Positions 1 to 29,042 of a stretch of DNA of 64,000 nt are shown one piece after another. Numbering within the stretch: position 1 is the first letter of the stretch; every line of letters begins with the position of its first letter. Origin of the DNA: Amphiscolops sp. MND2022 (Eukaryota); the NCBI GenBank assembly GCA_964187785.1, contig OZ076409.1, forward strand, positions 15,440,001 to 15,504,000, given 5' to 3'. Position numbers and translations under genes: made by a program. The notes beneath the pieces are model-generated. The model had not been told where the DNA came from. It made no database searches and worked only from the letters and a program-made list of their open reading frames with translations.

Positions 1-16
1 CTGGCTTTGTTACCAC

Positions 17-244
17 TCAGGCCTTTGAAAGCTGGTTAAGGCCCAAAGGATCCTGAGGGTCAAACTTGGCTTTCCGCTTCCGTCGATTCCGCTTCTTTGG
101 GGGAGGCGGTTCTTGGGGAGAGGAATAGTCCAACACGGCTAGATTACTATTTTGACTGCGCTTTCGCCTTGCTCTCTTTCGGACTCGAGGATCCTCCAGA
201 GTGTCAGTTGTTGGTTCGAGCGGAATCAATTTCATAGCTAGCAA
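17..244 (-). CDS. Small basic Lys/Arg/Pro-rich ORF or captured terminal exon (copy 1 of 4)
   Basis: 75-aa ORF with RKRARRKR and PPPPKKRNRRKRK clusters; acceptor-like ttttgctag near 239-247 on minus; identical translation at 10575, 13730 and 15818. Confidence 0.35.
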   Translation of the reverse strand: MLAMKLIPLEPTTDTLEDPRVRKRARRKRSQNSNLAVLDYSSPQEPPPPKKRNRRKRKAKFDPQDPLGLNQLSKA

Positions 245-504
245 AATATGTTTTTGAGGTTTTCAACGCGAGACATAATTCATCCACTCTGACATTTCTG
301 GGGCAGCTGCGAGTGATTGGGTATACTTAAACATGTGTAGAGTCAAAAAAACCTATATTCGACTAGATTATTGTAATGCAGTGATTTCTTTTACATCTGC
401 GTACGTAATGTCTGTGCTTATGTAAAGTCGGAAACAATAGACATACGGGCGATGCAAGTTCGTTATGGCGCAGGCGTTTACCACTATCACGGAGCTTGAA
501 TAAA

Positions 505-3500
505 CAACCGATAGCGTAGAGGTTGCGTATCAGACTCTGCTTCCAGTGTTTTCAGTTCGATCCCCTCTATCGATCCTTTTCTTTCAAATATTGTCAGCGT
601 GAAGAGCTTTTCAAAAGCTCTGGGTTATTCTTTTCTCTTAGTGAGTCGCTTACAACCACTGTTTTGCAAGATAACTTGGACTAGAGGTTACGTTGGTCCA
701 CAGGTTCGTTAGAGTGTTGTTTTGGTAGCTTTGGGTTCGATCCCCGTGGTGGACTTGGATGGGCACTTGAGTTGATCAATTTGAAAGTTCTTTCATTATT
801 TGAATACGAATGCTTACTTTGGAAGCGGCAAAATTTCAAGATAGGGATTTTTGGACTCTTTCCAATACCGTTGTCCGTTTTTTGCAGTCTTTTCAACAGT
901 CAAGGGCGTAGTGGTTGCGTGTTAGATTTCCATTCCAATGTCTTGAGTTCGATTCCCTCAATCAAATTTTTCATAAAATTTTTGTCGGCGGAGACAGTAT
1001 TTCAAAACCACTGGATTATTCTTCTCCCTTAATGGTGCGCCTAAAACCACTGTTTTGCAAGATATCGTGGCCTAGGGGTTGTGTTGGTGGTTAGGTTTGG
1101 TTTAGCGTTTTTCTGGTATCTTTGGGTTCGGTTCCCGGGGATGGAATTTGTTCCGCACTTGTATAGATAAAGTGTTATCGCTTACACCCAACTTGGTTGT
1201 TTAATTCGACACAACTACCGAATATAGCATTATGAATTCGTCCAAAATTTGAATTGGAATGCTTACTTTGGAAGCGGCGAAAACTTCAGCATAGGGACTA
1301 TTTGAACGATTTTTCCAATGACGTTGTCGATTTTTTCACATCGTTTCAACAGTCAATAGCTTAGTGGTTGTGTGATAGATTTCCATTCCAATGTCTTGAG
1401 TTCGATTCCCTCGATCAAAATTTTTTCAAAAAATTGTCCGCGTGGACAGTCTTTCAGAAGCACTGGATTATTCCAATCACTTAGTGGTGCGCCTAAAACC
1501 ACTGTTTCGCAAGATATCGTGGCCTAGAGGTTGCGTGATAGACTCACAACCCAATGTCTTGAGTTCGATTCCCGCCATCGATCTTTTTTCAAAAAAATTG
1601 TCAGCGTGAACAGTCTTTTAAAACCAATGGTGTTCTTCTTTTTCCTTAATGGTGCGCTTGCAACTACTGTTCAGCAAGAGATCGTGGCCTAGACGTTGCG
1701 TTGATTGTCAGGTTTGTCCGGGTGTTATTCTGGTAGCTTTGGGTTCAATCCCCGGGATGGACACGGTTCAGCGCTTGAATTGATCGTGTTATGGCTTAAA
1801 CCCAACTTGATTGTTCATTTCGACACATACCGTATATAAGACTCTAAGTTCGTTCATTATTTGAATACGAATGCTGACTTTGGAAGCGGCAAAAATTTCA
1901 ACATAGTGATTTTTGGACTCCTTCCAATAACGTTGTCCATTTTTTCACATCTTTTAAACAGTAAATGGCGTAGTGGTTGCGTAACAGATTGCCATACCAA
2001 TGTCTTGAGTTCGATTCCCTCGATCAAGATTTTTTGAAAAAAATTGTCCGCGTGGACAGTCTTTCAGAAGCACTGGATTATTCCAATCACTTAGTGGTGC
2101 GCCTAAAACCACTGTTTCGCAAGATATCGTGGCCTAGAGGTTGCGTGTTAGACTCACAACCCAATGTCTTGAGTTCGATTCCCGCCATCGATCTTTTTTC
2201 AAAAAAATTGTCAGCGTGAACAGTCTTTTAAAACCAATGGTGTTCTTCTTTTTCCTTAATGGTGCGCTTGCAACTACTGTTCAGCAAGAGATCGCGGCCT
2301 AGAAGTTGCGTTGATTGTCAGGTTTGTCCGGGGGTTATTCTGTTAGCTTTGGGTTCAATCCCCGAGATGGACACGGTTCAGCGCTTGAATTGATCGTGTT
2401 ATGGCTTAAACCCAACTTGATTGTTCAATTCGACACATACCGTATATAAGACTCTAAGTTCGTTCATTATTTGAATACGAATGCTGACTTTGGAAGCGGC
2501 TAAAATTTCAACATAGTGATTTCTGGACTCCTTCCAATAACCTTGTCCATTTTTTCACATCTTTTAAACAGTAAATGGCGTAGTGGTTGCGTAATAGATT
2601 GCCATACCAATGTCTTGAGTTCGATTCCCTCGATCAAGATTTTTTGAAAGAAATTGTCCGCGTGGACAGTCTTTCAGAAGCACTGGATTATTCCATTCAC
2701 TTAGTGGTGCGCCTGAAATCACTGTTTCGCAAGATATCGTGGCCTAGAGGTTGCGTGTTAGACTCTCAACCCAATGTCCTGAGTTCAATTCCCGCCATCG
2801 ATCTTTTTTCAAAAATAATTGTCAGGGTGAACAGTCTTTTAAAAGCATTGGAGTTCTTGATGGTGCGGTGCGCTTGCAACTACAGTTCAGCAAGAGATCG
2901 TGGCCTAGAGGTTGCGTTGGTTTTCAATTTCGTCCGGGAGTTATTCTGGTAGCTTTGGGTTCAATCCCAGGGATTGACATGGTTCAGCACTTGAATTGAT
3001 ATTGATATGGCTTAAACCCAATTTCATTGTTCATTTTGACACATACCGAATATAGCATTATGAATTCGTCCAAAATTTGAATTGGAATGCTTACTTTGGA
3101 AACGGCTAAAACTTCAGCGTAGTAACTATTTGGACGTTCTTTCCAATGACGTTGTACATTTTTGGCACATCGTTTCAACAGTCAATAGTGTAGTGGTTGC
3201 GTGATAGATTTCCATTCCAATGTCTTGAGTTCGATTCCGTCTATCAAGATTTTTTAAAAATTTGTTCGCGTGGACAGTCTTTCAGAACACTGGATTATTC
3301 CATTCACTTAGTGGTGCGCCTAAAACCATTGTTTCGCAAGATATCGTGGCCTAGAGGTTGCGTGTTAGACTCTCAACCCAATGCCTTGAGTTCGATTCCC
3401 GCCATCGATCTTTTTTTAAAAAAAATTGTCAGCGTGAACATAGCTGCAATCAACTGTGGATGGTGCAGAGGTCGTGTACTAGGCTCTCATAACAACGGCT

Positions 3501-4805
3501 TGAGTTCGAAACTCTTTGTCAACTTTTCTTTTGCGAAGAATGCGATTGTGATTCTGCAACATTGTCACCGAAGTTAAACCACGTTTTTTGAAAAGGTCGA
3601 ATAACCACAAAAATATGACAAACCTAATTAACGGAAAAAAGCCGATAACATTTATTGGAAGGCAACATAACTTAACTCAAGGAAGTTTTCGTGGACGCCT
3701 TTTCCAATGGCAATGACCATTTTCTTCCATCTTTCCAAGGTGTCCCACTTTGTGACACTGTCACCGAAAGTGAACCTCACTTCGTAACAACATGAATAAA
3801 AGGAAAAACTCAGTGAAGTTTGCAAGGAACACGGCAAAATTTTCACTGTGAAGGTTTTGAACGCTTTTTTAAATGCTGTTCTCCATTTTTTCACATTTTT
3901 TCACATTGACCACACACTTTGCAATACTGTCACCAAAGTTAAAATACGAATTTGGAAAAAAAAGCTACAACAAAGTGGGAGTTTTGGTGGACGCTTTCTC
4001 TACGGTTGATGTCTATTTGCTTCCAAATGTCCAATTTGACTATTTTTGCAACCCTGCTCCGACAATAACACCTGTTTTGCGTTCACTACCACAACGCTGA
4101 ATTCAACAGTGGTTAATGCAGTGGTCGTGTACTAGGCTCTCATACCAACTGTTCGACTTCAAAACCGTTAGTTGAACCACGTTTTTTGACACAGTCGAAA
4201 AACCACGAAATTAGTCAACGAAAAAAGCAGAAAACTTTCATTGGAAGGCAACATAAAATACAGCATGAAAGTTTTCGTGGAATCCAAAGTCTATGTCTTT
4301 TTTTTCCATTTTTTTCAATTTGACCCTCTTTGCAACACTGTTACACTGCAACACCGAAGTTAAACCTCATTTTGTGGCAAAATAAAATTGACGCATAAGT
4401 CAGTGAAGTTTCCAAACCACGCAGCAAAACGTTTACCGTTGGGGGTTTTTTGAACGCTTTTTCCTATGGTGTTCTCCAATTTTCCACATCTTTTCACATT
4501 GACCCCAACTTGGCAATACGGTCACCAAAGTTAAACCACGTTTTTGACAAAAAGCTACAACTTCGGCAAGATATCGTGGCCAGGAGGTTGTCTTGAGTTC
4601 GATTCCCTCTATCAACTTTGTTTTTCAAAATTCTAATTCTCTCATTCTAATGCTAAGTTAACTATCACATAGCTGCAAGCAACACTCGATGGCACAGAAG
4701 TCATACAAATATGTGTCTCTAATAAGAAGCTCATTTCAACTGTCCATGGTGCAGAGGTCGGGAACTGGGCAGCCACTCCAGTGGTCCTGAGTTCGAACCA
4801 CTCTT
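505..4805 (+). repeat. Array of degenerate tRNA-like Pol III cassettes (~610-bp unit with 3 cassettes), followed by 5S-spacer-like repeats
   Basis: Recurrent TGGCGTAGTGG/TGGCCTAGAGG (A box) and GAGTTCGATTCC/GGGTTCGATCCCC (B box), often followed by T-runs. Period 610 bp (ORFs at 1977, 2587, 3197). Acceptor and T stems do not pair. Confidence 0.85.
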
Positions 4806-5775
4806 TCAACTTTTTTTGTGCTGCAACTTTTTGAAGCCGCCTTGAGAGATTTTCATACACAGATTTTTTCCAATGTGATCAAGTTTTTTTGTCTGATAAT
4901 AAATTCTTTTAACGTTTTTGGCTTATACAATAGACGTCTTCAATTTGCGTCCACATTAACCCAATATCATCTGTCTTCGAATGTAAAAACGCAATCTTCA
5001 CTTTATTCTAAACACCTAGCCCTTCATTGTTTTCCGACTACTGGTATCAAAATGTAACTACTGCAGACACAGCTCTCACTTCGCAACAATGAAAACGTTG
5101 GTAACATTATTCGATCTTGCGACCTGTGCCATTATGCACGTCTACATAGATCATAATGTTACCCAATGCGCTAGCCTAACAAACTTCGATCCACTTCGTT
5201 GAGCCGTGGCCCCGCTGTCGGATCAGTCTGTGAAGCTAAGGGTGATCTGGATTTGATCCCAACGTTTGAGCCATAGCCCCGTTGTGGAACATTCAGTGAG
5301 ACTCCCGCTTTTTGCCGTTTTTATATCAATCAAGGCGTTACACCGTTTACGTTGGAGTAAAAACTAATTGAAACCAATTCTGATAGCTCTAATCAACTTT
5401 ATCCAATTCAACTCTATCCAATTGGCGAAGTAAAAGCCCGCTTAGGTCTTTTTCAAGACTGGTTGACAGCTGTGAGCCCAGTGGGTGTTCTGGAACCTAT
5501 GTAGCATAAGTTAGTCGCAAAACAGGCCATCGGTAGTCCCGGCTAGAGTTTGCCTGATAGTGATCTGGGCCCCACGCTCTGACCCTAACGCGATGGAGTG
5601 AATTGTATGGATGAAATAACTTTCGAGCTAAGTTACTGAAGTCGCCCTTGAGTAAAAGTAATTTTGAACATTTCGATTGACCAAGTTTTCTTTAATTTTT
5701 CCCAGTCTAACAATACTTCAACCTACTATCAATTCTTTGTGAGTTTATTTTCCTTACATTTCAGACTCTCCAGTC

Positions 5776-6482
5776 ATGGAGCAAACTTCGTTTACAACTC
5801 TGATTGGTTCTGCAAGTGGTAAGCAGCTAACATCTATACTTTTACTCTCTACAAATTCCTCTATAGAAAACTCAGTTTGTTCAGATCTTATCAACGATAT
5901 AAAGAATATGGGGAAAAGATATTTGCACGAGCAAAAAGAAAATCAAAATTTAATGGCAAGTAAGTAAACATTTGTTTTTCCAAAAAATTGTACCATTTTC
6001 GAAACTTTCCATTCCATGCTTACTTTTTCAGAATATTCAAAACTGGAACAACAAAACGAAGGTGAGCCTATGTTTGGATTTATATCAACCAATATCAAAC
6101 GTCTAAAATCTATCAAAACGGTTTTAGAGCTGAAGAAGGAGCTGAAAGTAACACGCCTCAAGCTCGCTGCAGAAAAATCGCGCACGTTCAAATTGAAGAA
6201 AGGTTCACTATGGTTTTGAATACCCAATATTTGAATGAAATAAATGACATGACTCACATGAAATTTGTTTAGATTCTGAAACCTTAGCGACAGCCCGAAC
6301 ACGTTAGTCATATAATTGTTTTTCAAAAAATCAAATTTTTGGAACATTTTGCTATGCTCTGTAGGTTCCTTTGTTTCGTGAAACACATCTTCCATAATAA
6401 AAATTAATGATGTCTTATTGTTTCAGTTTGCCTGCAAATGGAGTACAGACACTTCAAAAGACGACATTCAGCTTCGTTTTAA
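5776..6482 (+). CDS. Putative spliced accessory gene, unknown product (copy of 21577-22283)
   Basis: Duplicate of the exon set at 21577 onward (offset 15801). Confidence 0.35.
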
Positions 6483-7082
6483 GATTGACATTTTGCTATA
6501 CATTATTGAAAAAATCTCTTCAATGTGTTTTTTCCTTCGATGTAAAAAAAGGATAGTCAGTTTACAGCTGGATTATGAATAACGCGAGGTTTCCTTTTTT
6601 TCGCATCCGTGAGGTAGAATACTTTCCATCAGTTAATCATAGCATTCTGCAGAGTCTGTAAAACGCAGTCAAAGTTTCAATTTTTCATACGCCTTATCTG
6701 CGTTTTGGTATTCAGGCATCTTAATGTATCAAAAAAGGTCGAGTCATTAAGACGGTGTTCGGTAATACGGAAATACTTTTCACAACTTGTCACTCTTTTT
6801 GTTTTTACAGCTTCTTATCTTTTTCAGAGAAAGTGGCTCTTCCATTAACTCTACAATGAATGCTGAACAAAATGCTGAAACGGTAAGAGGACATCTGTTT
6901 CTTTGATCTCATTATACATATATAAAGGGAGACCGGACAAATTCGCTGATTGGTTGAGATACGCTCGGTGATACGCGCTGCTGCAAAACAGTTCAAAAGA
7001 AGATTCCGAGGTACGCTGTAAGAAAATATGTTGCTGACTTTCGAAATAGACGACGTTTCAGATTATCCAGCTCTAATCAACA

Positions 7083-10000
7083 GTGGATAGCGTAGAGGTT
7101 GCGTGTTAGACTCTCAACCCAATGTCTTGAGTTCGATTCCCGCCATCGATCGTTTTTCAAAAAAATTGTCAGCGTGAACAGTCTTTTAAAAGCATTCGTG
7201 TTCTTCTTTTCCCCTAATGGTGCGCTTGCAACTACTGTTCAGCAAGATAACGTGGCCTAGAGGTTGCGTTGGTTGTCAGGTTCGTTCGGGTGTTATTCTG
7301 GTAGCTTTGGGTTCGATCCCCGGGATGGACATGGTTTATAACTTGAATTGATGAATTGATAGTGTTATGGTTTAAAGCCAACTTGATTGTTCATTTCGAC
7401 ACAAACCGTATATAGGACTCTAAGTTCGTTAGAAATTTGAATAAAATTGCATACTTTGGAAGCGGCAAATTTTTCAATTTAGGGATATTTGGAATCTTTC
7501 TAATAACGTTGTCCATTTTTTCACCTTTTCAACAGTCAATGGCGTAGTGGTTGCGTGTTAGATTTCCATTCCAATGTCTTGAGTTCGATTCCCTCGATCA
7601 AGATTTTTTTAAAATTTCTCCGCGTGGACAGTCTTTCAGAAGCACTGGATTATTCCACTCACTTAGTGGTTTGCCTAAAACCACTGTTTCGCAAGATATC
7701 GTGGCCTAGAGGTTGCGTGTTAGACTCTCAACCCAATGTCTTGAGTTCGATTCCCGCCATCGATCTTTTTACAAAGAAAATTGTCAACGTGAACAGTCTT
7801 TTAAAAGCTTTGGTGTTCTTCTTTTTCCTTAATGGTGCGCTTGCAACTACTGTTCAGCAAGAGATCGTAGCCTAGAGGTTGCGTTGGTGTCAGGTTCGTT
7901 CGGGTGTTATTCTGGTAGCTTTGGATTCGATCCCCGGGTTGGACATGGTTTATAACTTGAAATGATAGTGTTATGGCTTAAACCCATCTTGATTGTTCAT
8001 TTCGACACATGCCGCGTATGGGACTCTAAGTTCGTTAAAAATTTGAATAAAATTGCTTACTTTGAAGCGGCAATTTTTTCAACTTATGGATTTTTGGATT
8101 CTTTCCAATAACGTTGTCCATTTTTTCACATCTTTTCAACAGTCAATGGCGTAGTGGTTGCGTGTTAGATTTCCATTCCAATGTCTTGAGTTCGATTCCC
8201 TCGATCAAGATTTTTTTTAAACATTTCTCCGCGTGGAAAGTCTTTCAGAAGCAATGGATTGTTCCACTCACTTAGTGGTGCGCCTAAAACCACTGTTTCG
8301 CAATATATCGTGGCCTAGAGGTTGCGTGTTAGACTCTCAACCCCATGTCTTGAGTTCGATTCCCGCCATCGATCTTTTTTCAAAAAAAATTGTCAGCGTG
8401 AACAGTCTTTTAAAAGCTTTGGTTTTCTTCTTTTTCCTTAATGGTGCGCTTGCAACTACTGTTCAGCAAGAGATCGTAGCCTAGAGGTTGCGTTGGTGTC
8501 AGGTTCGTTCGGGTGTTATTCTGGTAGCTTTGGGTTCGATCCCCGGGTTGGACATGGTTTATAACTTGAAATGATAGTGTTATGGCTTAAACACATCTTG
8601 ATTGTTCATTTCGACACATGCCGCGTATAGGACTTTCAGTTCGTTAAAAATTTGAATAAAATTGCTTACTTTGGAAGCGGCAAGTTTTTCAACTTAGGGA
8701 TTCTTGGATTCTTTCCAATAACGTTGTCCATTTTTTCACATCTTTTCAACAGTCAATGGCGTAGTGGTTGCGTGTTAGATTTCCATTCCAATGTCTTGAG
8801 TTCGATTCCCTCGATCAAGATTTTTTTTAAACATTTCTCCGCGTGGACAGTCTTTCAGAAGCAATGGATTGTTCCACTCACTTAGTGGTGCGCCTAAAAC
8901 CACTGTTTCGCGAGATATCGTGGCCTAGAGGTTGCGTGTTAGACTCTCAACCCAATGTCTTGAGTTCGATTCCCGCCATCGATCTTTTTTCAAAAATATT
9001 TGTCAGCGTGAACAGTCTTTTGAAAGCTTTGGTGTTCTTCTTTTTCCTTAATGGTGCGGTGCGCTTGCAACTACTGTTCAGCAAGAGATGGTGGCCTAGA
9101 GGTTGCGTTGGTTGTCAGGTTTGTCCGGGAGTTATTCTGGTAGCTTTGGGTTCAATCCCGGGATTGACATGGTTCAGCAGTTGAATTGATAGTGATATGG
9201 CTTTAACCCAATTTGATTGCTCATTTTTACACATACCGAATATAGCATTATGAATTCTTCCAAAATTTGAAATGGAATGCTTACTTTGGAAACGGCTAAA
9301 ACTTCAGCATAGTGACTATTTGGACATTCTTTCCAATGACGTTGTCCATTTTTACATCGTTTCAACAGTCAAAAGCGTAGTGGTTGCGTAATAGATTTCC
9401 TTTCCAATGTCTTGAGTTCGATTCCCTCGATCAAGAATTTTTAAAAAATTTGTCCGCGTGGACAGTCTTTCAGAAGCACTGGATTATTCCATTCACTTAG
9501 TGGTGCGCCTAAAGCCACTGTTTCGCAAGATATCGTGGCCTAGAGGTTGCGTGTTAGACTCTCAACCCAATGTCTTGAGTTCGATTCCCGCCATCGATCT
9601 TTTTTTTGAAAAAATTGTCAGCGTGAACAGTCTTTCAAAAGCATTGGTGTTCTTCTTTTTCCTTAATGGTGCAGTGCGCTTGCAACTACTGTTCAGCAAG
9701 AGATCGTGGGATAGAGGTTGCTTGAGTTCAAATCCCTTAGTCAACTTTTATTTTACGAAGAGAGTGATTGTGGTTCAACAACATTGGCACCGAAGTTAAA
9801 CCACGTTTTTTGACAAAATCGAAAAACCTCAAAATTATAACAACATTAGTTAACGACAAATGCAGATAACAATCTTTGGAGGGCAACATGAATTACATCA
9901 TGGTTTTCGCGGACGCCTTTTCTATAGGCTATGTCTATTTTTTCCATCTTTTCACTTTGATCTACTTTGCAACAGTGTCACCGAAGTTAAAACTCACTTT

Positions 10001-10460
10001 GTTACAAAAAGAATATAAGGAATAACTCAGTGAAGTTCCCAAAGAACGCGGCAAAACTTTCTTCGTGAGGGTTTTTCTTACGCTTTTTCCAGTGGTGCTC
10101 TCCAATTTTTCACATCTTTTCAATTTAAAACACTTTGCAAAACTTTCACCAAAGTTAAACCACGTTTCTTGACAAAAAAAGCTACAACAGCGTAGGAGTT
10201 TCCGTGGACGCTCTCTCCAAAGTTGTAGTCTATTTTTTTCCGTCTTTTTAACTTGACTAACTTTCGAAGTAAGTTGAAACCTGTTTGTGTTCACTATCAT
10301 ATTTTATTAATTTGAAATCAAGGGTCAATGGTGCAGAGGTTGTGTACTAGGCTCTCATAACAATCGCTTGAGTTCGAAACCCTCAATCAACTTTTTTTTT
10401 CGGAGAATGCGATCGTGATTCTGGAACATTGTCTGCGAAGTTAAACCACGTTTTTTGATA
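7083..10460 (+). repeat. tRNA-like Pol III cassette array (610-bp units) plus 5S-spacer-like block
   Basis: Same A/B-box cassettes; period ~610-615 bp (ORFs at 8233, 8843, 9458); tcaccgaagttaaaccac-type subrepeats at ~9790-10450. Confidence 0.85.
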
Positions 10461-10574
10461 AAGTCGATAAAGTCCACGAATTCAAGTGCAGACTTCATTG
10501 TTTAATGCAATTTTTTGTTACTTAGATAAAGTTTCAGAATTGGGCGCCAGCCCGAAGGCTGGCTTTGTTACCAC

Positions 10575-10802
10575 TCAGGCCTTTGAAAGCTGGTTAAGGC
10601 CCAAAGGATCCTGAGGGTCAAACTTGGCTTTCCGCTTCCGTCGATTCCGCTTCTTTGGGGGAGGCGGTTCTTGGGGAGAGGAATAGTCCAACACGGCTAG
10701 ATTACTATTTTGACTGCGCTTTCGCCTTGCTCTCTTTCGGACTCGAGGATCCTCCAGAGTGTCAGTTGTTGGTTCGAGCGGAATCAATTTCATAGCTAGC
10801 AA
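10575..10802 (-). CDS. Small basic ORF/exon (copy 2)
   Basis: Translation identical to 17-244. Confidence 0.35.
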   Translation of the reverse strand: MLAMKLIPLEPTTDTLEDPRVRKRARRKRSQNSNLAVLDYSSPQEPPPPKKRNRRKRKAKFDPQDPLGLNQLSKA

Positions 10803-13729
10803 AATATGTTTTTGAGGTTTTCAACGCGAGACTTAATTCATCCTTTCTGACATTTCTGGGGCAGCTGCGAGTGATTGGGTATACTTAAACATGTGTAGAG
10901 TCAAAAAAACCTATATTCGACTAGATTATTGTAATGCAGTGATTTCTTTTACATCTGCGTACGTAATGTCTGTGCTTATGTAAAGTCGGAAACAATAGAC
11001 ATACGGGCGATGCAAGTTCGTCATGGCGCAGGCGTTTACCACTATCACGGAGCTTGAATAAACAACCGATAGCGTAGAGGTTGCGTATCAGACTCTGCTT
11101 CCAGTGTTTTCAGTTCGATCCCCTCTATCGCTCCTTTTCTTTCAAATATTGTCAGCGTGAAGAGCCTTCCAAAAGCTCTGGGTTATTCTTTTCTCTTAGT
11201 GGGTCGCTTGCAACGACTGTTTTGCAAGATAACGTGGACTAGAGGTTACGTTGGTCCACAGGTTCGTTAGAGTGTTGTTTTGGTAGCTTTGGGTTCGATC
11301 TCCGTGGTGGACTTGGATGGGCACTTGAGTTGATCAATTTAAAAGTTCTTTCATTATTTGAATACGAATGCTTACTTTGGAAGCGGCAAAATATCAAGAT
11401 AGGGATTTTTGGACTCTTTCCAATACCGTTGTCCATTTTTGCAGTCTTTTCAACAGTCAATGGCGTAGTGGTTGCGTGTTAGATTTCAATTCCAATGTCT
11501 TGAGTTCGATTCCCTCAATCAAATTTTTTATAAAAATTTTGTCGGCGGAGACAGTATTTCAAAACCACTGGATTATTCTTCTCCCTTAATGGTGCGCTTA
11601 AAACCACTGTTTTGCAAGATATCGTGGCCTAGGGGTTGTGTTGGTGGTTAGGTTTGGTTTAGCGTTGTTCTGGTATCTTTGGGTTCGGTCCCCGGGGATG
11701 GAATTTGTTCCGCACTTGAATAGATAGAGTGTTATCGCTTACACCCAACTTGGTTGTTTAATTCGACACAACTACCGAATATAGCATTATGAATTCGTCC
11801 AAATTTGAATTGGAATGCTTACTTTGGAAGCGGCGAAAACTTCAGCATAGGGACTATTTGAACGTTTTTTCCAATGACGTTGACGATGTTTTCACATCGT
11901 TTCAACAGTCAATAGCGTAGTGGTTGTGTGATAGATTTCCATTCCAATGTCTTGAGTTCGATTCCTTCGATCAAAATTTTTTTCAAAAAATTGTCCGCGT
12001 GGACAGTCTTTCGGAAGCACTGGATTATTCCAATCACTTAGTGGTGAGCCTAAAACCACTGTTTCGCAAGATATCGTGGCCTAGAAGTTGCGTGTTAGAC
12101 TCACAACCCAATGTATTGAGTTCGATTCCCCCCATGGATTTTTTTTAAAAATATTTGTCAGCGTGAACAGTCTTTTGAAAGCTTTGGTGTTCTTCTTTTT
12201 CCTTAATGGTGCGATGCGCTTGCAACTACTGTTCAGCAAGAGATCGTGGTCTAGAGGTTGCGTTGGTTGTCAGGTTCGTCCGGGAGTTATTCTTGTAGCT
12301 TTGGGTTCAATCCCGGGATTGACATGGTTCAGCAGTTGAATTGATAGTGATATGGCTTAAACCCAATTTGATTGTTCATTTTTACACATACCGAATATAG
12401 CATTATGAATTCGTCCAAAATTTGAAATGGAATGCTTACTTTGGAAACGGCTAAAACTTCAGCATAGTGATTATTTGGATGTTCTTTCCAATGACGTTGT
12501 CCATTTTTACATCGTTTCAAAAGTCCATAGCGTAGTGGTTGCGTAATAGATTTCCATTCCAATGTCTTGAGTTCGATTCCCTCGATCAAGGTTTTTTAAA
12601 AAATTTGTCCGCGTGGACAGTCTTTCAGAAGCACTGGATTATTCCATTCACTTAGTGGTGCGCCTAAAACCACTGTTTCGCAAGATATCGTGGCCTAGAG
12701 GTTGCGTGTTAGACTCTCAACCCAATGTCTTGAGTTCGATTCCCGCCATCGATCTTTTTTTTAAAAAAATTGTCAGCGTGAACAGTCTTTCAAAAGCATT
12801 GGTGTTCATCTTTTTCCTTAATGGTGCGGTGCGCTTGCAACTACTGTTCAGCAAGAGATCGTGGGATAGAGGTTGCCTGAGTTCAAATCCCTTAGTCAAC
12901 TTTTATTTTACGAAGAGAGTGATTGTGGTTCAACAACATTGGCACCGAAGTTAAACCACGTTTTTTGACAAAATCGAAAAACCTCAAAATTATAACAACA
13001 TTAGTTAACGACAAATGCAGATAACAATCTTTGGAGGGCAACATGAATTACATCATGGTTTTCGCGGACGCCTTTTCTATAGGCTATGTCTATTTTTTCC
13101 ATCTTTTCACTTTGATCTACTTTGCAACAGTGTCACCGAAGTTAAAACTCACTTTGTTACAAAAAGAATATAAGGAATAACTCAGTGAAGTTCCCAAAGA
13201 ACGCGGCAAAACTTTCTTCGTGAGGGTTTTTCTTACGCTTTTTCCAGTGGTGCTCTCCAATTTTTCACATCTTTTCAATTTAAAACACTTTGCAAAACTT
13301 TCACCAAAGTTAAACCACGTTTCTTGACAAAAAAAGCTACAACAGCGTAGGAGTTTCCGTGGACGCTCTCTCCAAAGTTGTAGTCTATTTTTTTCCGTCT
13401 TTTTAACTTGACTAACTTTCGAAGTAAGTTGAAACCTGTTTGTGTTCACTATCATATTTTATTAATTTGAAATCAAGGGTCAATGGTGCAGAGGTTGTGT
13501 ACTAGGCTCTCATAACAATCGCTTGAGTTCGAAACCCTCAATCAACTTTTTTTTTCGGAGAATGCGATCGTGATTCTGGAACATTGTCTGCGAAGTTAAA
13601 CCACGTTTTTTGATAAAGTCGATAAAGTCCACGAATTCAAGTGCAGACTTCATTGTTTAATGCAATTTTTTGTTACTTAGATAAAGTTTCAGAATTGGGC
13701 GCCAGCCCGAAGGCTGGCTTTGTTACCAC

Positions 13730-13957
13730 TCAGGCCTTTGAAAGCTGGTTAAGGCCCAAAGGATCCTGAGGGTCAAACTTGGCTTTCCGCTTCCGTCGAT
13801 TCCGCTTCTTTGGGGGAGGCGGTTCTTGGGGAGAGGAATAGTCCAACACGGCTAGATTACTATTTTGACTGCGCTTTCGCCTTGCTCTCTTTCGGACTCG
13901 AGGATCCTCCAGAGTGTCAGTTGTTGGTTCGAGCGGAATCAATTTCATAGCTAGCAA
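13730..13957 (-). CDS. Small basic ORF/exon (copy 3)
   Basis: Translation identical to 17-244. Confidence 0.35.
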   Translation of the reverse strand: MLAMKLIPLEPTTDTLEDPRVRKRARRKRSQNSNLAVLDYSSPQEPPPPKKRNRRKRKAKFDPQDPLGLNQLSKA

Positions 13958-15817
13958 AATATGTTTTTGAGGTTTTCAACGCGAGACATAATTCATCCAC
14001 TCTGACATTTCTGGGGCAGCTGCGAGTGATTGGATATACTTAAACATGTGTAGAGTCAAAAAAACCTATATTCGACTAGATTATTGTAATGCAGTGATTT
14101 CTTTTACATCTGCGTACGTAATGTCTGTGCTTATGTAAAGTCGGAAACAATAGACATACGGCGATGCAAGTTCGTTATGGCGCAGGCGTTTACCACTATC
14201 ACGGAGCTTGAATAAACAACCGATAGCGTAGAGGTTGCGTATCAGACTCTGCTTCCAGTGTTTTCAGTTCGATCCCCTCTATCGATCCTTTTCTTTCAAA
14301 TATTGTCAGCGTGAAGAGCCTTTCAAAAGCTCTGGGTTATTCTTTTCTCTTAGTGAGTCGCTTACAACCACTGTTTTGCAAGATAACTTGGACTAGAGGT
14401 TACGTTGGTCCACAGGTTCGTTAGAGTGTTGTTTTGGTAGCTTTGGGTTCGATCCCCGTGGTGGACTTGGATGGGCACTTGAGTTGATCAATTTGAAAGT
14501 TCTTTCATTATTTGAATACGAATGCTTACTTTGGAAGCGGCAAAATTTCAAGATAGGGATTTTTGGACTCTTTCCAATACCGTTGTCCGTTTTTTGCAGT
14601 CTTTTCAAAAGTCCATAGCGTAGTGGTTGCGTAATAGATTTCCATTCCAATGTCTTGAGTTCGATTCCCTCGATCAAGGTTTTTTAAAAAATTTGTCCGC
14701 GTGGACAGTCTTTCAGAAGCACTGGATTATTCCATTCACTTAGTGGTGCGCCTAAAACCACTGTTTCGCAAGATATCGTGGCCTAGAGGTTGCGTGTTAG
14801 ACTCTCAACCCAATGTCTTGAGTTCGATTCCCGCCATCGATCTTTTTTTTAAAAAAATTGTCAGCGTGAACAGTCTTTCAAAAGCATTGGTGTTCTTCTT
14901 TTTCCTTAATGGTGCGGTGCGCTTGCAACTACTGTTCAGCAAGAGATCGTGGGATAGAGGTTGCTTGAGTTCAAATCCCTTAGTCAACTTTTATTTTACG
15001 AAGAGAGTGATTGTGGTTCAACAACATTGGCACCGAAGTTAAACCACGTTTTTTGACAAAATCGAAAAACCTCAAAATTATAACAACATTAGTTAACGAC
15101 AAATGCAGATAACAATCTTTGGAGGGCAACATGAATTACATCATGGTTTTCGCGGACGCCTTTTCTATAGGCTATGTCTATTTTTTCCATCTTTTCACTT
15201 TGATCTACTTTGCAACAGTGTCACCGAAGTTAAAACTCACTTTGTTACAAAAAGAATATAAGGAATAACTCAGTGAAGTTCTCAAAGAACGCGGCAAAAC
15301 TTTCTTCGTGAGGGTTTTTCTTACGCTTTTTCCAGTGGTGCTCTCCAATTTTTCACATCTTTTCAATTTAAAACACTTTGCAAAACTTTCACCAAAGTTA
15401 AACCACGTTTCTTGACAAAAAAAGCTACAACAGCGTAGGAGTTTCCGTGGACGCTCTCTCCAAAGTTGTAGTCTATTTTTTTCCGTCTTTTTAACTTGAC
15501 TAACTTTCGAAGTAAGTTGAAACCTGTTTGTGTTCACTATCATATTTTATTAAATTGAAATCAAGGGTCAATGGTGCAGAGGTTGTGTACTAGGCTCTCA
15601 TAACAATCGCTTGAGTTCGAAACCCTCAATCAACTTTTTTTTTCGGAGAATGCGATCGTGATTCTGGAACATTGTCTGCGAAGTTAAACCACGTTTTTTG
15701 ATAAAGTCGATAAAGTCCACGAATTCAAGTGCAGACTTCATTGTTTAATGCAATTTTTTGTTACTTAGATAAAGTTTCAGAAGTGGGCGCCAGCCCGAAG
15801 GCTGGCTTTGTTACCAC

Positions 15818-16045
15818 TCAGGCCTTTGAAAGCTGGTTAAGGCCCAAAGGATCCTGAGGGTCAAACTTGGCTTTCCGCTTCCGTCGATTCCGCTTCTTTG
15901 GGGGAGGCGGTTCTTGGGGAGAGGAATAGTCCAACACGGCTAGATTACTATTTTGACTGCGCTTTCGCCTTGCTCTCTTTCGGACTCGAGGATCCTCCAG
16001 AGTGTCAGTTGTTGGTTCGAGCGGAATCAATTTCATAGCTAGCAA
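15818..16045 (-). CDS. Small basic ORF/exon (copy 4)
   Basis: Translation identical to 17-244. Confidence 0.35.
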   Translation of the reverse strand: MLAMKLIPLEPTTDTLEDPRVRKRARRKRSQNSNLAVLDYSSPQEPPPPKKRNRRKRKAKFDPQDPLGLNQLSKA

Positions 16046-16305
16046 AATATGTTTTTGAGGTTTTCAACGCGAGACATAATTCATCCACTCTGACATTTCT
16101 GGGGCAGCTGCGAGTGATTGGGTATACTTAAACATGTGTAGAGTCAAAAAAACCTATATTCGACTAGATTATTGTAATGCAGTGATTTCTTTTACATCTG
16201 CGTACGTAATGTCTGTGCTTATGTAAAGTCGGAAACAATAGACATACGGGCGATGCAAGTTCGTTATGGCGCAGGCGTTTACCACTATCACGGAGCTTGA
16301 ATAAA

Positions 16306-19300
16306 CAACCGATAGCGTAGAGGTTGCGTATCAGACTCTGCTTCCAGTGTTTTCAGTTCGATCCCCTCTATCGATCCTTTTCTTTCAAATATTGTCAGCG
16401 TGAAGAGCTTTTCAAAAGCTCTGGGTTATTCTTTTCTCGTAGTGAGTCGCTTACAACCACTGTTTTGCAAGATAACTTGGACTAGAGGTTACGTTGGTCC
16501 ACAGGTTCGTTAGAGTGTTGTTTTGGTAGCTTTGGGTTCGATCCCCGTGGTGGACTTGGATGGGCACTTGAGTTGATCAATTTGAAAGTTCTTTCATTAT
16601 TTGAATACGAATGCTTACTTTGGAAGCGGCAAAATTTCAAGATAGGGATTTTTGGACTCTTTCCAATACCGTTGTCCGTTTTTTGCAGTCTTTTCAACAG
16701 TCAATGGCGTAGTGGTTGCGTGTTAGATTTCCATTCCAATGTCTTGAGTTCGATTCCCTCAATCAAATTTTTCATAAAATTTTTGTCGGCGGAGACAGTA
16801 TTTCAAAACCACTGGATTATTCTTCTCCCTTAATGGTGCGCCTAAAACCACTGTTTTGCAAGATATCGTGGCCTAGGGGTTGTGTTGGTGGTTAGGTTTG
16901 GTTTAGCGTTTTTCTGGTATCTTTGGGTTCGGTTCCCGGGGATGGAATTTGTTCCGCACTTGTATAGATAAAGTGTTATCGCTTACACCCAACTTGGTTG
17001 TTTAATTCGACACAACTACCGAATATAGCATTATGAATTCGTCCAAAATTTGAATTGGAATGCTTACTTTGGAAGCGGCGAAAACTTCAGCATAGGGACT
17101 ATTTGAACGATTTTTCCAATGACGTTGTCGATTTTTTCACATCGTTTCAACAGTCAATAGCGTAGTGGTTGTGTGATAGATTTCCATTCCAATGTCTTGA
17201 GTTCGATTCCCTCGATCAATTTTTTTTCAAAAAATTGTCCGCGTGGACAGTCTTTCAGAAGCACTGGATTATTCCAATCACTTAGTGGTGCGCCTAAAAC
17301 CACTGTTTCGCAAGATATCGTGGCCTAGAGGTTGCGTGATAGACTCACAACCCAATGTCTTGAGTTCGATTCCCGCCATCGATCTTTTTTCAAAAAAATT
17401 GTCAGCGTGAACAGTCTTTTAAAACCAATGGTGTTCTTCTTTTTCCTTAATGGTGCGCTTGCAACTACTGTTCAGCAAGAGATCGTGGCCTAGACGTTGC
17501 GTTGATTGTCAGGTTTGTCCGGGTGTTATTCTGGTAGCTTTGGGTTCAATCCCCGGGATGGACACGGTTCAGCGCTTGAATTGATCGTGTTATGGCTTAA
17601 ACCCAACTTGATTGTTCATTTCGACACATACCGTATATAAGACTCTAAGTTCGTTCATTATTTGAATACGAATGCTGACTTTGGAAGCGGCAAAAATTTC
17701 AACATAGTGATTTTTGGACTCCTTCCAATAACGTTGTCCATTTTTTCGCATCTTTTAAACAGTAAATGGCGTAGTGGTTGCGTAACAGATTGCCATACCA
17801 ATGTCTTGAGTTCGATTCCCTCGATCAAGATTTTTTGAAAAAAATTGTCCGCGTGGACAGTCTTTCAGAAGCACTGGATTATTCCAATCACTTAGTGGTG
17901 CGCCTAAAACCACTGTTTCGCAAGATATCGTGGCCTAGAGGTTGCGTGTTAGACTCACAACCCAATGTCTTGAGTTCGATTCCCGCCATCGATCTTTTTT
18001 CAAAAAAATTGTCAGCGTGAACAGTCTTTTAAAACCAATGGTGTTCTTCTTTTTCCTTAATGGTGCGCTTGCAACTACTGTTCAGCAAGAGATCGCGGCC
18101 TAGAAGTTGCGTTGATTGTCAGGTTTGTCCGGTGGTTATTCTGTTAGCTTTGGGTTCAATCCCCGAGATGGACACGGTTCAGCGCTTGAATTGATCGTGT
18201 TATGGCTTAAACCCAACTTGATTGTTCAATTCGACACATACCGTATATAAGACTCTAAGTTCGTTCATTATTTGAATACGAATGCTGACTTTGGAAGCGG
18301 CTAAAATTTCAACATAGTGATTTCTGGACTCCTTCCAATAACCTTGTCCATTTTTTCACATCTTTTAAACAGTAAATGTCGTAGTGGTTGCGTAATAGAT
18401 TGCCATACCAATGTCTTGAGTTCGATTCCCTCGATCAAGATTTTTTGAAAGAAATTGTCCGCGTGGACAGTCTTTCAGAAGCACTGGATTATTCCATTCA
18501 CTTAGTGGTGCGCCTGAAATCACTGTTTCGCAAGATATCGTGGCCTAGAGGTTGCGTGTTAGACTCTCAACCCAATGTCCTGAGTTCAATTCCCGCCATC
18601 GATCTTTTTTCAAAAATAATTGTCAGGGTGAACAGTCTTTTAAAAGCATTGGAGTTCTTGATGGTGCGGTGCGCTTGCAACTACAGTTCAGCAAGAGATC
18701 GTGGCCTAGAGGTTGCGTTGGTTTTCAATTTCGTCCGGGAGTTATTCTGGTAGCTTTGGGTTCAATCCCAGGGATTGACATGGTTCAGCACTTGAATTGA
18801 TATTGATATGGCTTAAACCCAATTTCATTGTTCATTTTGACACATACCGAATATAGCATTATGAATTCGTCCAAAATTTGAATTGGAATGCTTACTTTGG
18901 AAACGGCTAAAACTTCAGCGTAGTAACTATTTGGACGTTCTTTCCAATGACGTTGTACATTTTTGGCACATCGTTTCAACAGTCAATAGTGTAGTGGTTG
19001 CGTGATAGATTTCCATTCCAATGTCTTGAGTTCAATTCCGTCTATCAAGAATTTTTAAAAATTTGTTCGCGTGGACAGTCTTTCAGAACACTGGATTATT
19101 CCATTCACTTAGTGGTGCGCCTAAAACCATTGTTTCGCAAGATATCGTGGCCTAGAGGTTGCGTGTTAGACTCTCAACCCAATGCCTTGAGTTCGATTCC
19201 CGCCATCGATCTTTTTTTAAAAAAAATTGTCAGCGTGAACATAGCTGCAATCAACTGTGGATGGTGCAGAGGTCGTGTACTAGGCTCTCATAACAACGGC

Positions 19301-20605
19301 TTGAGTTCGAAACTCTTTGTCAACTTTTCTTTTGCGAAGAATGCGATTGTGATTCTGCAACATTGTCACCGAAGTTAAACCACGTTTTTTGAAAAGGTCG
19401 AATAACCACAAAAATATGACAAACCTAATTAACGGAAAAAAGCCGATAACATTTATTGGAAGGCAACATAACTTAACTCAAGGAAGTTTTCGTGGACGCC
19501 TTTTCCAATGGCAATGACCATTTTCTTCCATCTTTCCAAGGTGTCCCACTTTGTGACACTGTCACCGAAAGTGAACCTCACTTCGTAACAACATGAATAA
19601 AAGGAAAAACTCAGTGAAGTTTGCAAGGAACACGGCAAAATTTTCACTGTGAAGGTTTTGAACGCTTTTTTAAATGCTGTTCTCCATTTTTTCACATTTT
19701 TTCACATTGACCACACACTTTGCAATACTGTCACCAAAGTTAAAATACGAATTTGGAAAAAAAGCTACAACAAAGTGGGAGTTTTGGTGGACGCTTTCTC
19801 TACGGTTGATGTCTATTTGCTTCCAAATGTCCAATTTGACTATTTTTGCAACCCTGCTCCGACAATAACACCTGTTTTGCGTTCACTACCACAACGCTGA
19901 ATTCAACAGTGGTTAATGCAGTGGTCGTGTACTAGGCTCTCATACCAACTGTTCGACTTCAAAACCGTTAGTTGAACCACGTTTTTTGACACAGTCGAAA
20001 AACCACGAAATTAGTCAACGAAAAAAGCAGAAAACTTTCATTGGAAGGCAACATAAAATACAGCATGAAAGTTTTCGTGGAATCCAAAGTCTATGTCTTT
20101 TTTTTTCCATTTTTTTCAATTTGACCCTCTTTGCAACACTGTTACACTGCAACACCGAAGTTAAACCTCATTTTGTGGCAAAATAAAATTGACGCATAAG
20201 TCAGTGAAGTTTCCAAACCACGCAGCAAAACGTTTACCGTTGGGGGTTTTTTGAACGCTTTTTCCTATGGTGTTCTCCAATTTTCCACATCTTTTCACAT
20301 TGACCCCAACTTGGCAATACGGTCACCAAAGTTAAACCACGTTTTTGACAAAAAGCTACAACTTCGGCAAGATATCGTGGCCAGGAGGTTGTCTTGAGTT
20401 CGATTCCCTCTATCAACTTTGTTTTTCAAAATTCTAATTCTCTCTTTCTAATGCTAAGTTAACTATCACATAGCTGCAAGCAACACTCGATGGCACAGAA
20501 GTCATACAAATATGTGTCTCTAATAAGAAGCTCATTTCAACTGTCCATGGTGCAGAGGTCGGGAACTGGGCAGCCACTCCAGTGGTCCTGAGTTCGAACC
20601 ACTCT
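16306..20605 (+). repeat. tRNA-like Pol III cassette array plus 5S-spacer-like repeats (copy of 505-4805)
   Basis: Duplicate at offset 15801; same A/B-box cassettes. Confidence 0.85.
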
Positions 20606-21576
20606 TTCAACTTTTTTTGTGCTGCAACTTTTTGAAGCCGCCTTGAGAGATTTTCATACACAGATTTTTTCCAATGTGATCAAGTTTTTTTGTCTGATAA
20701 TAAATTCTTTTAACGTTTTTGGCATATACAATAGACGTCTTCAATTTGCGTCCACATTAACCCAATATCATCTGTTTTCGAATGTAAAAACGCAATCTTC
20801 ACTTTATTCTAAACACCTAGCCCTTCATTGTTTTCCGACTACTGGTATCAAAATGTAACTACTGCAGACACAGCTCTCACTTCGCAACAATGAAAACGTT
20901 GGTAACATTATTCGATCTTGCGACCTGTGCCATTATGCACGTCTACATAGATCATAATGTTACCCAATGCGCTAGCCTAACAAACTTCGATCCACTTCGT
21001 TGAGCCGTGGCCCCGCTGTCGGATCAGTCTGTGAAGCTAAGGGTGATCTGGATTTGATCCCAACGTTTGAGCCATAGCCCCGTTGTGGAACATTCAGTGA
21101 GACTCCCGCTTTTTGCCGTTTTTATATCAATCAAGGCGTTACACCGTTTACGTTGGAGTAAAAACTAATTGAAACCAATTCTGATAGCTCTAATCAACTT
21201 TATCCAATTCAACTCTATCCAATTGGCGAAGTAAAAGCCCGCTTAGGTCTTTTTCAAGACTGGTTGACAGCTGTGAGCCCAGTGGGTGTTCTGGAACCTA
21301 TGTAGCATAAGTTAGTCGCAAAACAGGCCATCGGTAGTCCCGGCTAGAGTTTGCCTGATAGTGATCTGGGCCCCACGCTCTGACCCTAACGCGATGGAGT
21401 GAATTGTATGGATGAAATAACTTTCGAGCTAAGTTACTGAAGTCGCCCTTGAGTAAAAGTAATTTTGAACATTTCGATTGACCAAGTTTTCTTTAACTTT
21501 TCCCAGTCTAACAATACTTCAACCTACTATCAATTCTTTGTGAGTTTATTTTCCTTACATTTCAGACTCTCCAGTC

Positions 21577-22283
21577 ATGGAGCAAACTTCGTTTACAACT
21601 CTTATTGGTTCTGCAAGTGGTAAGCAGCTAACATCTATACTTTTACTCTCTACAAATTCCTCTATAGAAAACTCAGTTTGTTCAGATCTTATCAACGATA
21701 TAAAGAATATGGGGAAAAGATATTTGCACGAGCAAAAAGAAAATCAAAATTTAATGGCAAGTAAGTAAACATTTGTTTTTCCAAAAAATTGTACCATTTT
21801 CGAAACTTTCCATTCCATGCTTACTTTTTCAGAATATTCAAAACTGGAACAACAAAACGAAGGTGAGCCTATGTTTGGATTTATATCAACCAATATCAAA
21901 CGTCTAAAATCTATCAAAACGGTTTTAGAGCTGAAGAAGGAGCTGAAAGTAACACGCCTCAAGCTCGCTGCAGAAAAATCGCGCACGTTCAAATTGAAGA
22001 AAGGTTCACTATTGTTTTGAATACCCAATATTTGAATGAAATAAATGACATGACTCACATGAAATTTGTTTAGATTCTGAAACCTTAGCGACAGCCCGAA
22101 CACGTTAGTCATATAATTGTTTTTCAAAAAATCAAATTTTTGGAACATTTTGCTATGCTCTGTAGGTTCCTTTGTTTCGTGAAACACATCTTCCATAATA
22201 AAAATTAATGATGTCTTATTGTTTCAGTTTGCCTGCAAATGGAGTACAGACACTTCAAAAGACGACATTCAGCTTCGTTTTAA
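21577..22283 (+). CDS. Putative spliced accessory gene upstream of RepHel, unknown product
   Basis: Exon 21577-21760 (donor GTAAGT) joins in frame to exon 21833-22003 (acceptor tttttcag), giving a Lys/Leu-rich segment LELKKELKVTRLKLAAEK. Later exons (22074-22103, ~22228-22283) are tentative. Confidence 0.4.
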
Positions 22284-22655
22284 GATTGACATTTTGCTAT
22301 ACATTATTGAAAAAATCTCTTCAATGTGTTTTTTCCTTCGATGTAAAAAAAGGATAGTCAGTTTACAGCTGGATTATGAATAACGCGAGGTTTCCTTTTT
22401 TCGCATCCGTGAGGTAGAATACTTTCCATCAGTTAATCATAGCATTCTGCAGAGTCTGTAAAACGCAGTCAAAGTTTCAATTTTTCATACGCCTTATTTG
22501 CGTTTTGGTATTCAGGCATCTTAATGTATCAAAAAAGGTCGAGTCATTAGGACGGTGTTCGGTAATACGGAAATACTTTTCACAACTTGTCACTCTTTTT
22601 GTTTTTACAGCTTCTTATCTTTTTCAGAGAAAGTGGCTCTTCCATTAACTCTACA

Positions 22656-27776: not shown

Positions 27777-28101
27777 ATATCAGTCTCTTTTAAAAAGCAC
27801 CCAAGCTAGCCACTGGTAGTTTAGGGGAGTAAAATCAAAGGACAAGATTAGATGTTTTGAAAATCCAACACATGTATTTTGTGCTCTAATCAACTTTTTT
27901 GTGCTCTAATCAACAGTGGATAACGTTGTGCTATTCTGGTAACTTTGTGTTCGAGCTCTAACGTGGACTTCGATCCGCACTTGAGTTGATAGAGTCTTAT
28001 GGCTTCACCCAACTTGGTTGTTTAATTTGACAATTACCATACAAGGCAAAAGTCGGGGAAAACTTTCATTCCGATTTATATCAATTAAACCCCTTTAAAT
28101 A

Positions 28102-28130
28102 GCCGCCGTAGGCGGCAACGGGTCTGCTAG
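28102..28130 (+). other. Helitron 3' terminal hairpin and CTAG
   Basis: gccgccgtaggcggc aacgggtctg ctag|t. Confidence 0.9.
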
Positions 28131-28690: not shown

Positions 28691-28696
28691 AAAAAA
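28691..28696 (-). terminator. Pol III terminator (T6) of 5S gene; also at 31234-31239
   Basis: aaaaaa on + strand directly adjoining the 5S 3' end. Confidence 0.8.
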
Positions 28697-28841: not shown

Positions 28842-29042
28842 TGCTTAACAACAAAATTACGTACAATGATACGAAAATTTTCTCGGTCAAAATACGCGTA
28901 ACTTTTAAGTTAGTGCAGACTAGCTTGTTCCTTGTTCAAAAAATTGGGCAGCAGACCACTTTCGCAGTCTGCTTTCAAATAAAACTTATCAATAGGGTTG
29001 GAATACTTACCTATTTAATAAGTTTATCACAACAATTAGGCT

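Follow-up and report, generated by a model that had tools for sequence, protein, structure and literature searches.

A Helitron family at one site of the 5S rDNA spacer in Amphiscolops, with arrays of tRNA-like RNA polymerase III promoter units

We analysed a stretch of 64,000 nucleotides (nt) from Amphiscolops sp. MND2022 (contig OZ076409.1 of assembly GCA_964187785.1, positions 15,440,001 to 15,504,000), referred to below as the window. It opens inside a Helitron, a rolling-circle transposon, whose 3' end abuts the spacer of a 5S ribosomal RNA (rRNA) gene. This copy is 37.1 kb in total, including a 15.8-kb internal tandem duplication, and its 5' end reads TCATATACATATATAAAGGG. Besides a Rep/helicase gene it carries long arrays of short cassettes with the A and B boxes of a transfer RNA (tRNA) type promoter for RNA polymerase III (Pol III). 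That the family inserts repeatedly at one fixed A/T site in the 5S ribosomal DNA (rDNA) spacer is well supported by its junctions. A function for the cassettes is moderately supported, and here the case is built on comparisons of sequence.

The Helitron and its place in the 5S rDNA spacer

The targeting is seen in a survey of element ends in 1.246 Mb of sequence around genome-wide matches, which yielded 17 5' ends and 17 3' ends. Sixteen of the 5' ends are preceded by (T)ATCACAACAA and the seventeenth is the internal duplication. On the other side, 16 of the 3' ends join a spacer of the TTAGGCT type, and the last joins the 5S spacer likewise after a deletion. The empty target site, TATCACAACAA/TTAGGCT, lies 221 base pairs (bp) upstream of the 5S start, and the Helitron is inserted antisense to the 5S gene. 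Genome-wide there are 19 matches to the 5' end, all inside 5S clusters on C1, C2, C12, C13 and C917, and 16 matches to the 3' hairpin (at most two mismatches), all in 5S clusters and all among the surveyed ends. The clusters with insertions belong to four chromosomes and one unplaced contig. When 544 copies of the site were sorted by state, 439 were empty or retroelement-distal, 83 retroelement-proximal, 16 joined to the Helitron and 6 in other states.

Such a pattern could come from a single ancestral insertion spread by duplication of 5S units, and this was rejected for copies on different chromosomes: the last 400 bp of these copies are 97-100% alike, versus 87-93% for their flanks. Near-identical copies in divergent flanks show repeated targeted insertions, independent of each other, at one site of a multicopy repeat. 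Neighbouring copies on C1 have flanks that are 98-99% alike and element ends that are just 68-70% alike; 5S-unit duplication may explain some of the neighbours within clusters. Additionally, a spacer variant 16 bp from the junction is the variant of the local cluster, an observation that speaks against recombination with long flanks as the means of transfer. In two cases the Helitron occupies the far duplicate of a retroelement target site, at distances of 2.2 and 2.8 kb from the start of 5S, from which we infer that local sequence and not distance defines the site. Pieces of 5S spacer, 70-88% alike, are built into the arrays and are a sign of long residence.

The same 18 bp of spacer are also struck by several full-length non-long-terminal-repeat (non-LTR) retroelement families, whose second open reading frame (ORF2) encodes about 1,050-1,110 amino acids with a reverse transcriptase by Pfam, and by ORF1-only derivatives. 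Retroelement junctions with 18-bp duplications make up 83 of the 544 site copies and are found in the 5S clusters of C1, C12, C13 and C917 (for example L184). That several families use the identical 18 bp points to some special feature of this spacer position. Two further observations concern the spacer itself. On the minus strand at 29029-29042, the target as read on the 5S strand resembles an 11-bp A box, without a good B box after it, which may be chance. At 28481-28520 and 28645-28680 the 5S spacer subrepeat contains an inverted 14-bp piece of the 5S internal control region (CACCGAAGTTAAAC), and captured copies are found again within the Helitron.

In other respects the family is a regular Helitron. 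The TCAT start is present at 16 of 16 target-joined 5' ends and the hairpin with CTAG at 16 of 17 3' ends, the remaining one being a junction deletion; comparison of the empty site with filled junctions shows insertion between A and T without target duplication. The family encodes an HUH Rep with two catalytic tyrosines joined to a Pif1 helicase (Pfam domains Helitron_like_N, PIF1 and Pif1_2B). The Rep/helicase gene of the window also has an RGRP word, which few homologues share (1 of 120). In the window copy the first catalytic tyrosine is a histidine. The other two full copies have both tyrosines, and tyrosine stands at the first position in 100 of 100 homologues in which the motif was found. 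A special one-tyrosine Rep was rejected, as the histidine is private to the window copy. Since Helraiser transposition is abolished by mutating either tyrosine (PMC4778049), the window copy is probably unable to supply its own enzyme. The helicase of this family is encoded at four loci with 95-100% identity, and the remaining copies, of 6-26 kb, are mostly ends plus arrays. The best proteins from other organisms are 38-43% identical, and a search of metagenome contigs gave no close relative.

Upstream of the Rep/helicase gene, positions 21577-22682 hold a coding-like stretch of small exons that may extend the protein N-terminally or belong to a second gene; the stretch is a candidate targeting module. 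Decoding of 21577-22650 gave no convincing gene model. One copy elsewhere (G000:C917:23035-36682, L075-L076) is chimeric and joins a window-type array to the 3' end of the other subfamily. Beyond the element, an assembly gap at 32619-32818 is followed by 10 kb of strongly negative GC skew (-0.3 to -0.48) at positions 33000-43500. The coordinates of the features are collected in Table 1.

Table 1. Features of the window discussed in the text (positions within the window)
Feature	Position	Strand	Details
Helitron copy	1..28130	+	Outer 5' end 9 kb before the window, at G000:C1:15431000
Array tail, first tandem half	489..4828	+	18 cassettes by profile search
Internal copy of 5' terminus (TCAT..ATACATATATAAAGGG)	6910..6935	+	Joined by microhomology to an intron of the first-half Rep gene
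Main cassette array	7064..20629	+	47 cassettes by profile search; higher-order repeats of short and long units
5'-most Pol III unit	7078..7157	+	CAA 7078-7080, A box 7088-7098, B box 7130-7140, T-run from 7153
One 607-610-bp repeat	7530..8136	+	Short type 1, short type 2, long type, spacer
Captured 5S-spacer subrepeats	19486..20354; also 3685-4553, 9891-10178, 13046-13333, 15134-15421	+	70-74% alike
Rep/helicase gene	22656..27776	+	10 exons, 1,429 amino acids, no internal stop; RGRP (AT-hook-like) word, HUH and Pif1 motifs
Rep catalytic motif	25065..25091	+	Histidine at first catalytic tyrosine in this copy
Decayed long-type cassette piece by Helitron 3' end	27900..28040	+	
3' end of Helitron	28102..28130	+	Hairpin GCCGCC-GTA-GGCGGC 28102-28116; terminal CTAG 28127-28130; then target-site T
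5S rDNA spacer 3' of insertion	28131..28695	.	168-bp subrepeats
Intact 5S rRNA gene	28696..28814	-	Antisense to Helitron; 117.5 bits
Copy of 18-bp target TATCACAACAA/TTAGGCT	29025..29042	+	Also left duplication of the retroelement
ORF1-only non-LTR element	29043..30662	-	ORF 29426-30592; 18-bp duplication, second copy 30663-30680

Arrays of tRNA-like cassettes

An initial annotation of the window had reported some 60-70 cassettes with A and B boxes at 505..20605, spaced at about 163/165/282 bp within a 610-bp unit. This is borne out by a profile search, which finds 65 at 489-20629 (47 short and 18 long), and by a strict box scan, which finds 62 (43 short and 19 long); about five more have internal deletions (at 4577, ~9700, 12862, 14950 and 20378), and the spacing was measured as 164/165/281. 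The region 505-20605 comprises two tandem halves of one element that are 99.7% alike, thus the 65 cassettes are not independent events. The cassettes of the window are without exception in + orientation. A count of the strict B-box word gives 63 for this strand (61 of them within 555-20592) versus 4 for the other over the whole window. The A-to-B spacing is 43 in short cassettes and 57-58 in long ones. A run of four T within 25 nt downstream follows all 43 short cassettes and 1 of the 19 long, so the long type has no near terminator, and a CAA ten bases 5' of the A box is found in 34 of the 43 short. Of the 68 short units in the window's element, 61 have both boxes intact. The cassettes thereby combine the A box, B box, workable spacing and downstream T-run of a type 2 Pol III promoter. 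The 5'-most unit of the main array lies 178 bp inside the element's 5' end at 6910 and is directed inward. The final ~80 bp of the spacer in the 607-610-bp unit are similar to a 5S-spacer subrepeat.

The cassettes are not tRNA genes. ARAGORN finds no tRNA among them, and their Rfam tRNA scores (24-27 bits) fall below the cut-off of 29. In short cassettes pairing reaches 90% in the D stem, 56% in the anticodon stem, 44% in the T stem and 24% in the acceptor stem, compared with 92-98% for the stems of a host tRNA-Lys array (445 units). The cloverleaf with paired acceptor and T stems is therefore lacking, and the annotation was right to call these units tRNA-like promoters. Its statement that both stems are broken holds for the short type; the long type has retained its T stem (87% paired). 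Its list of varied triplets at the anticodon position has to be corrected for the "CAT" type, which reads CTC at fixed register.

No progenitor tRNA emerged from a comparison with a host sample of 7-9 types. The best of these (Met, Arg-TCT and Lys) reach at most 69% over the body, versus a median of 75% between cassette types. The long type is best matched to Leu-AAG in 4 of 6 cases with weak scores, and a search with a Glu motif gave no match. The host's own tRNA genes are organized in single-type tandem arrays with units of ~190-220 bp (L111-L128, L135, L195-L200), in which the anticodon drifts on an unchanged body and stop-reading anticodons occur.

The arrays are confined to the Helitron family. 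An exact 22-mer of the short cassette is found 179 times in the genome, and 179 of 179 occurrences are within the 5S-cluster stretches. Of 964 cassettes, 960 are inside defined elements or their fragments and 4 are beside fragments. Every two-ended copy examined carries cassettes, the smallest with 16. These counts uphold the assignment of the array to the Helitron. The decayed piece by the 3' end that had been taken to link the two, at ~27930-28040, matches long-type units at 75-81%. With 960 of 964 cassettes in elements or fragments, the arrays are not a free-standing satellite outside the transposon. Neither do they behave as a tRNA-derived short interspersed nuclear element, which would be dispersed and have target duplications and a 3' tail; the 179 matches are tandem arrays in 5S clusters.

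Constraint on the promoter boxes and a proposed role

Over long times the promoter boxes are kept, as a comparison of cassette types with each other shows. In 25 short types with at least three copies each (five deleted or long types were left out), the 13 canonical promoter positions have 0.85 changes per site versus 2.44 for the rest of the body (p 7e-5 by permutation). For the CAA ten bases 5' of the A box the figure is one change per site. A second test anchored on the spacers gave 0.31-0.69 changes per site at canonical positions versus 0.97-1.79, with p of 0.0001-0.018 over four thresholds, at each of which one row with a non-homologous inter-box stretch was dropped. Across cassette types, canonical promoter bases thus change 2-4 times slower than those between the boxes or in the spacers. 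In each of the 25 types just 0-3 of the 7 acceptor pairs can form, and most types lie nearer to each other than to any host tRNA compared, so this constraint is not simply that of different tRNA genes. At 13 of 17 ends the 5'-most unit is still intact, 175-178 bp inside. What is conserved is the promoter geometry, the orientation and the nearness to the 5' end, and not an RNA fold.

A second Helitron family of this genome provides an outside comparison. It is dispersed and intronless, 9.4 kb long (L207:2834-12276, with copies on C1, C2, C3, C7 and C8), and its helicase is 34-37% identical to that of the window family. It also carries a 38-bp minisatellite of up to ~84 copies. All six copies examined have a single Pol III-type unit ~340 bp inside the 5' end, with CAA, an A box of the matching unusual form, a B box at 43-nt spacing and a T-run, but what lies between its boxes is unrelated to the inter-box sequence of the window family. 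Shuffled sequences reproduced the full geometry of this unit in 0 of 3000 cases, while a loose pair of A and B boxes appeared in 19 of 1000. Five copies of this family served as a control: their AT-rich insertion sites are unrelated, and the 20 kb examined contain no 5S match. A unit of equal geometry in this family means that the unit is not tied to 5S targeting.

The best reading of the arrays is, in our view, that they are expanded and partly decaying copies of an inward Pol III unit. We propose that such inward-pointing units act in cis as Pol III promoters which keep the 5' end open for the Rep nick, and we give this proposal an even chance of being right. A and B boxes bind TFIIIC, with TFIIIB loaded upstream, and genes of this kind are nucleosome-free and act as barriers (PMC7990762, PMC5911963); the barrier function of tRNA-gene DNA (tDNA) depends on intact A and B boxes (PMC7990762). 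Helitron Rep cleaves single strands only, and the Helraiser paper proposed that transcription-driven negative supercoiling yields single strands at the AT-rich 5' end (PMC4778049). In the window family, TFIIIC on the two boxes would load TFIIIB and Pol III, and transcription would run for ~75 nt, from near the CAA to the T-run. A unit transcribing away from the 5' end places that end in the wake of transcription. The 5'-most unit, 175-178 bp inside, could in this way clear nucleosomes, block silencing and leave the AT-rich terminus negatively supercoiled, so that the single strand required by the HUH nuclease becomes available. In the 5S-resident lineage the unit would have become linked to captured pieces of 5S spacer, and unequal exchange would have expanded it into arrays of 6-26 kb, the inner copies of which would be weakly constrained. 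Target choice would depend mainly on the local DNA sequence, or on a protein that binds there, and not on the distance from the 5S start.

Several results weigh against this proposal. The 25-type test was seeded with box-bearing cassettes, and when the non-homologous row is included in the spacer-anchored test p is 0.012 at one threshold and 0.31 at the other. Recent variation (48 and 214 unit variants) shows no significant excess conservation of boxes over spacers (p 0.10, 0.21) or over inter-box bases (p 0.45, 0.98). The initial annotation had promoter boxes kept while stems were lost, which is the case over long times and is not seen in this recent variation. Nine non-autonomous copies retain an intact B-box core in 185 of 339 short cassettes and in 49 of 276 long ones, with A58 of the B box often lost. 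The corresponding counts are 176 of 196 short and 66 of 80 long in five copies with window-type arrays, and 94% in the 445 host tRNA-Lys units. The intact first cassettes at the 5' ends share ancestry. Additionally, eleven other Rep/helicase loci of the genome have no such unit, and some of them are 98-99% alike and so recently mobile. No Pol III unit was found at 79 distant metagenomic Helitron loci, many of them on short contigs, and 16 of these 79 gave no Rfam match. Helitrons in general therefore do not need a Pol III unit. A quick helicase tree, in which the window row has a long branch, groups the dispersed family with the cassette-free loci and not with the window's family; it is compatible with one old origin of the unit plus loss or with exchange between families, and cannot tell these apart. 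As an aside, CpG and other sites in the arrays (the 7530-8136 unit and its relatives) change about equally often (4.24 vs 4.30 and 0.85 vs 0.67 changes per site), which gives little sign of methylation-driven decay.

The alternative that survives best is that the arrays are neutral cargo, a captured tRNA gene having decayed and been amplified as an internal satellite, with boxes that look kept by chance or ascertainment. This would account for the recent variation without a box effect and for the amplification of B boxes with a substituted A58 (179 long cassettes read GTTCGGTC and 78 short ones GTTCGTTT). The plain 38-bp minisatellite of the dispersed family, the large tandem tRNA arrays available in the host for capture, and the satellites known to arise from central repeats of Helitrons (PMC9659126) all fit with it as well. 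It does not readily explain why canonical positions are 2-4 times slower across types already without acceptor pairing. Nor does it explain why a distant family whose inter-box sequence is unrelated should have the CAA, the spacing and the terminator again, given that the CAA is absent at the corresponding place from the 7 host tRNA types sampled. We consider it unlikely, though it is to be taken seriously.

Somewhat more doubtful is the suggestion, also made in the initial annotation, of a tether, by which many TFIIIC sites would bring the double-stranded circle to a 5S Pol III focus and raise the local concentration for Rep. Arrays are found in the 5S-targeted family alone, the dispersed family having a single unit, and their occurrence down to the smallest two-ended copy would be expected under this idea. 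Double-stranded circles serve as donors (PMC5876387), and in C. elegans Pol III foci are found at the 5S cluster (bioRxiv 10.64898/2026.01.07.698080). However, host tRNA arrays should then be favoured too, yet all ends found are in 5S clusters. The identical site is used by copies in which most B boxes are broken, the base-pair precision requires another determinant, and unrelated retroelements without such arrays strike the identical 18 bp. As a main job the tether is weakened by the unit of the dispersed family and by a target that follows local sequence.

The third possibility, that the ~75-nt RNAs themselves act as tRNA mimics (an option of the initial annotation too), decoys or guides, draws on the CAA, T-runs and paired D stem of the short cassettes and is improbable, because none of 7 predicted transcripts folds better than its shuffles (z -1.2 to +1.3), the acceptor pairs at 0-3 of 7 positions in every type, the inter-box sequence of one family is unrelated to that of the other, and a permuted, guide-like match of cassette to target site was rejected as chance (92% of shuffled targets score equally). 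Returning to the cis-acting promoter, it can be placed in a broader scheme of strictly sequence-targeted Helitrons, in some lineages of which the element's own Pol III unit would melt and unsilence the 5' end, while in the 5S lineage the TFIIIC array would also dock the circle at 5S foci. We hold this combined scheme tentatively and would sooner expect it to fail in some part than to stand whole.

Relation to known elements and what the family may offer

The family shares with canonical Helitrons such as Helraiser/Helibat1 the 5' TC, the 3' hairpin and CTAG, A/T insertion without duplication, the HUH Rep with two tyrosines and Pif1 helicase, and the capture of flanking DNA (PMC4778049, PMC5876387). 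It differs in its target. The 1,751 insertions of Helraiser share only an AT dinucleotide in AT-rich DNA genome-wide (PMC4778049), whereas every end of the window family that was found is at one site of one repeat. A count of the terms "tRNA" and "polymerase III" in the paper on Helraiser gave 0 (PMC4778049). The choice of a multicopy RNA gene as a safe haven, apparently by primary sequence, is known from Dada (tRNA, small nuclear RNA and 5S genes), Pokey (28S) and CryptonV (PMC8869645) and from Starships in 5S rDNA (PMC11162782). These elements rely on DDE transposases or tyrosine recombinases, and for Dada-5S and Starships the insertion point is within the gene (PMC8869645, PMC11162782); the window family uses HUH rolling-circle transposition, inserts in the spacer and leaves the 5S genes whole. 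Where the Dada paper lists target-specific DNA transposons it names Pokey, CryptonV and Dada, and Helitrons are not among them (PMC8869645).

Insertion near Pol III genes is also a feature of Ty3, Ty1, TRE5 and TRE3, and TRE5 likewise inserts upstream of 5S in the opposite orientation (PMC5911963). Proteins of Ty3 and TRE5 contact TFIIIB at the target, and insertion is at a set distance (PMC5911963), whereas here the boxes are carried by the element itself and two copies are 2.2 and 2.8 kb from 5S at identical sequence. Tandem arrays inside or overlapping Helitrons have been described for the internal repeats of DINE-TR1 (PMC9659126) and for an Arabidopsis tRNA-Cys cluster (PMC10701932). The latter consists of high-confidence tRNA genes, and its element was unconfirmed by three Helitron finders (PMC10701932); the window family is unambiguously a Helitron, and its units, which are not tRNAs, have preferentially kept their promoter bases. 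The cassettes resemble tDNA chromatin barriers in their clustered A and B boxes and TFIIIB-loading geometry (PMC7990762), a likeness drawn from sequence alone, and differ in being transposon-borne and without a cloverleaf.

To our knowledge, Helitrons are otherwise thought to select just an A-T pair. Our literature search gave no description of a sequence-targeted Helitron or of a Helitron-borne Pol III unit, and Repbase reports, subscription journals and supplements may hold a precedent. A Helitron of 6-37 kb that inserts at a fixed base pair in a safe multicopy locus would add HUH enzymes to the site-specific transposons of eukaryotes. A 5S-targeted Helitron would offer a natural system for studying large cargo at a fixed site, and its Pol III unit would allow a direct test of the question raised by Helraiser, namely where the single-stranded 5' end comes from.

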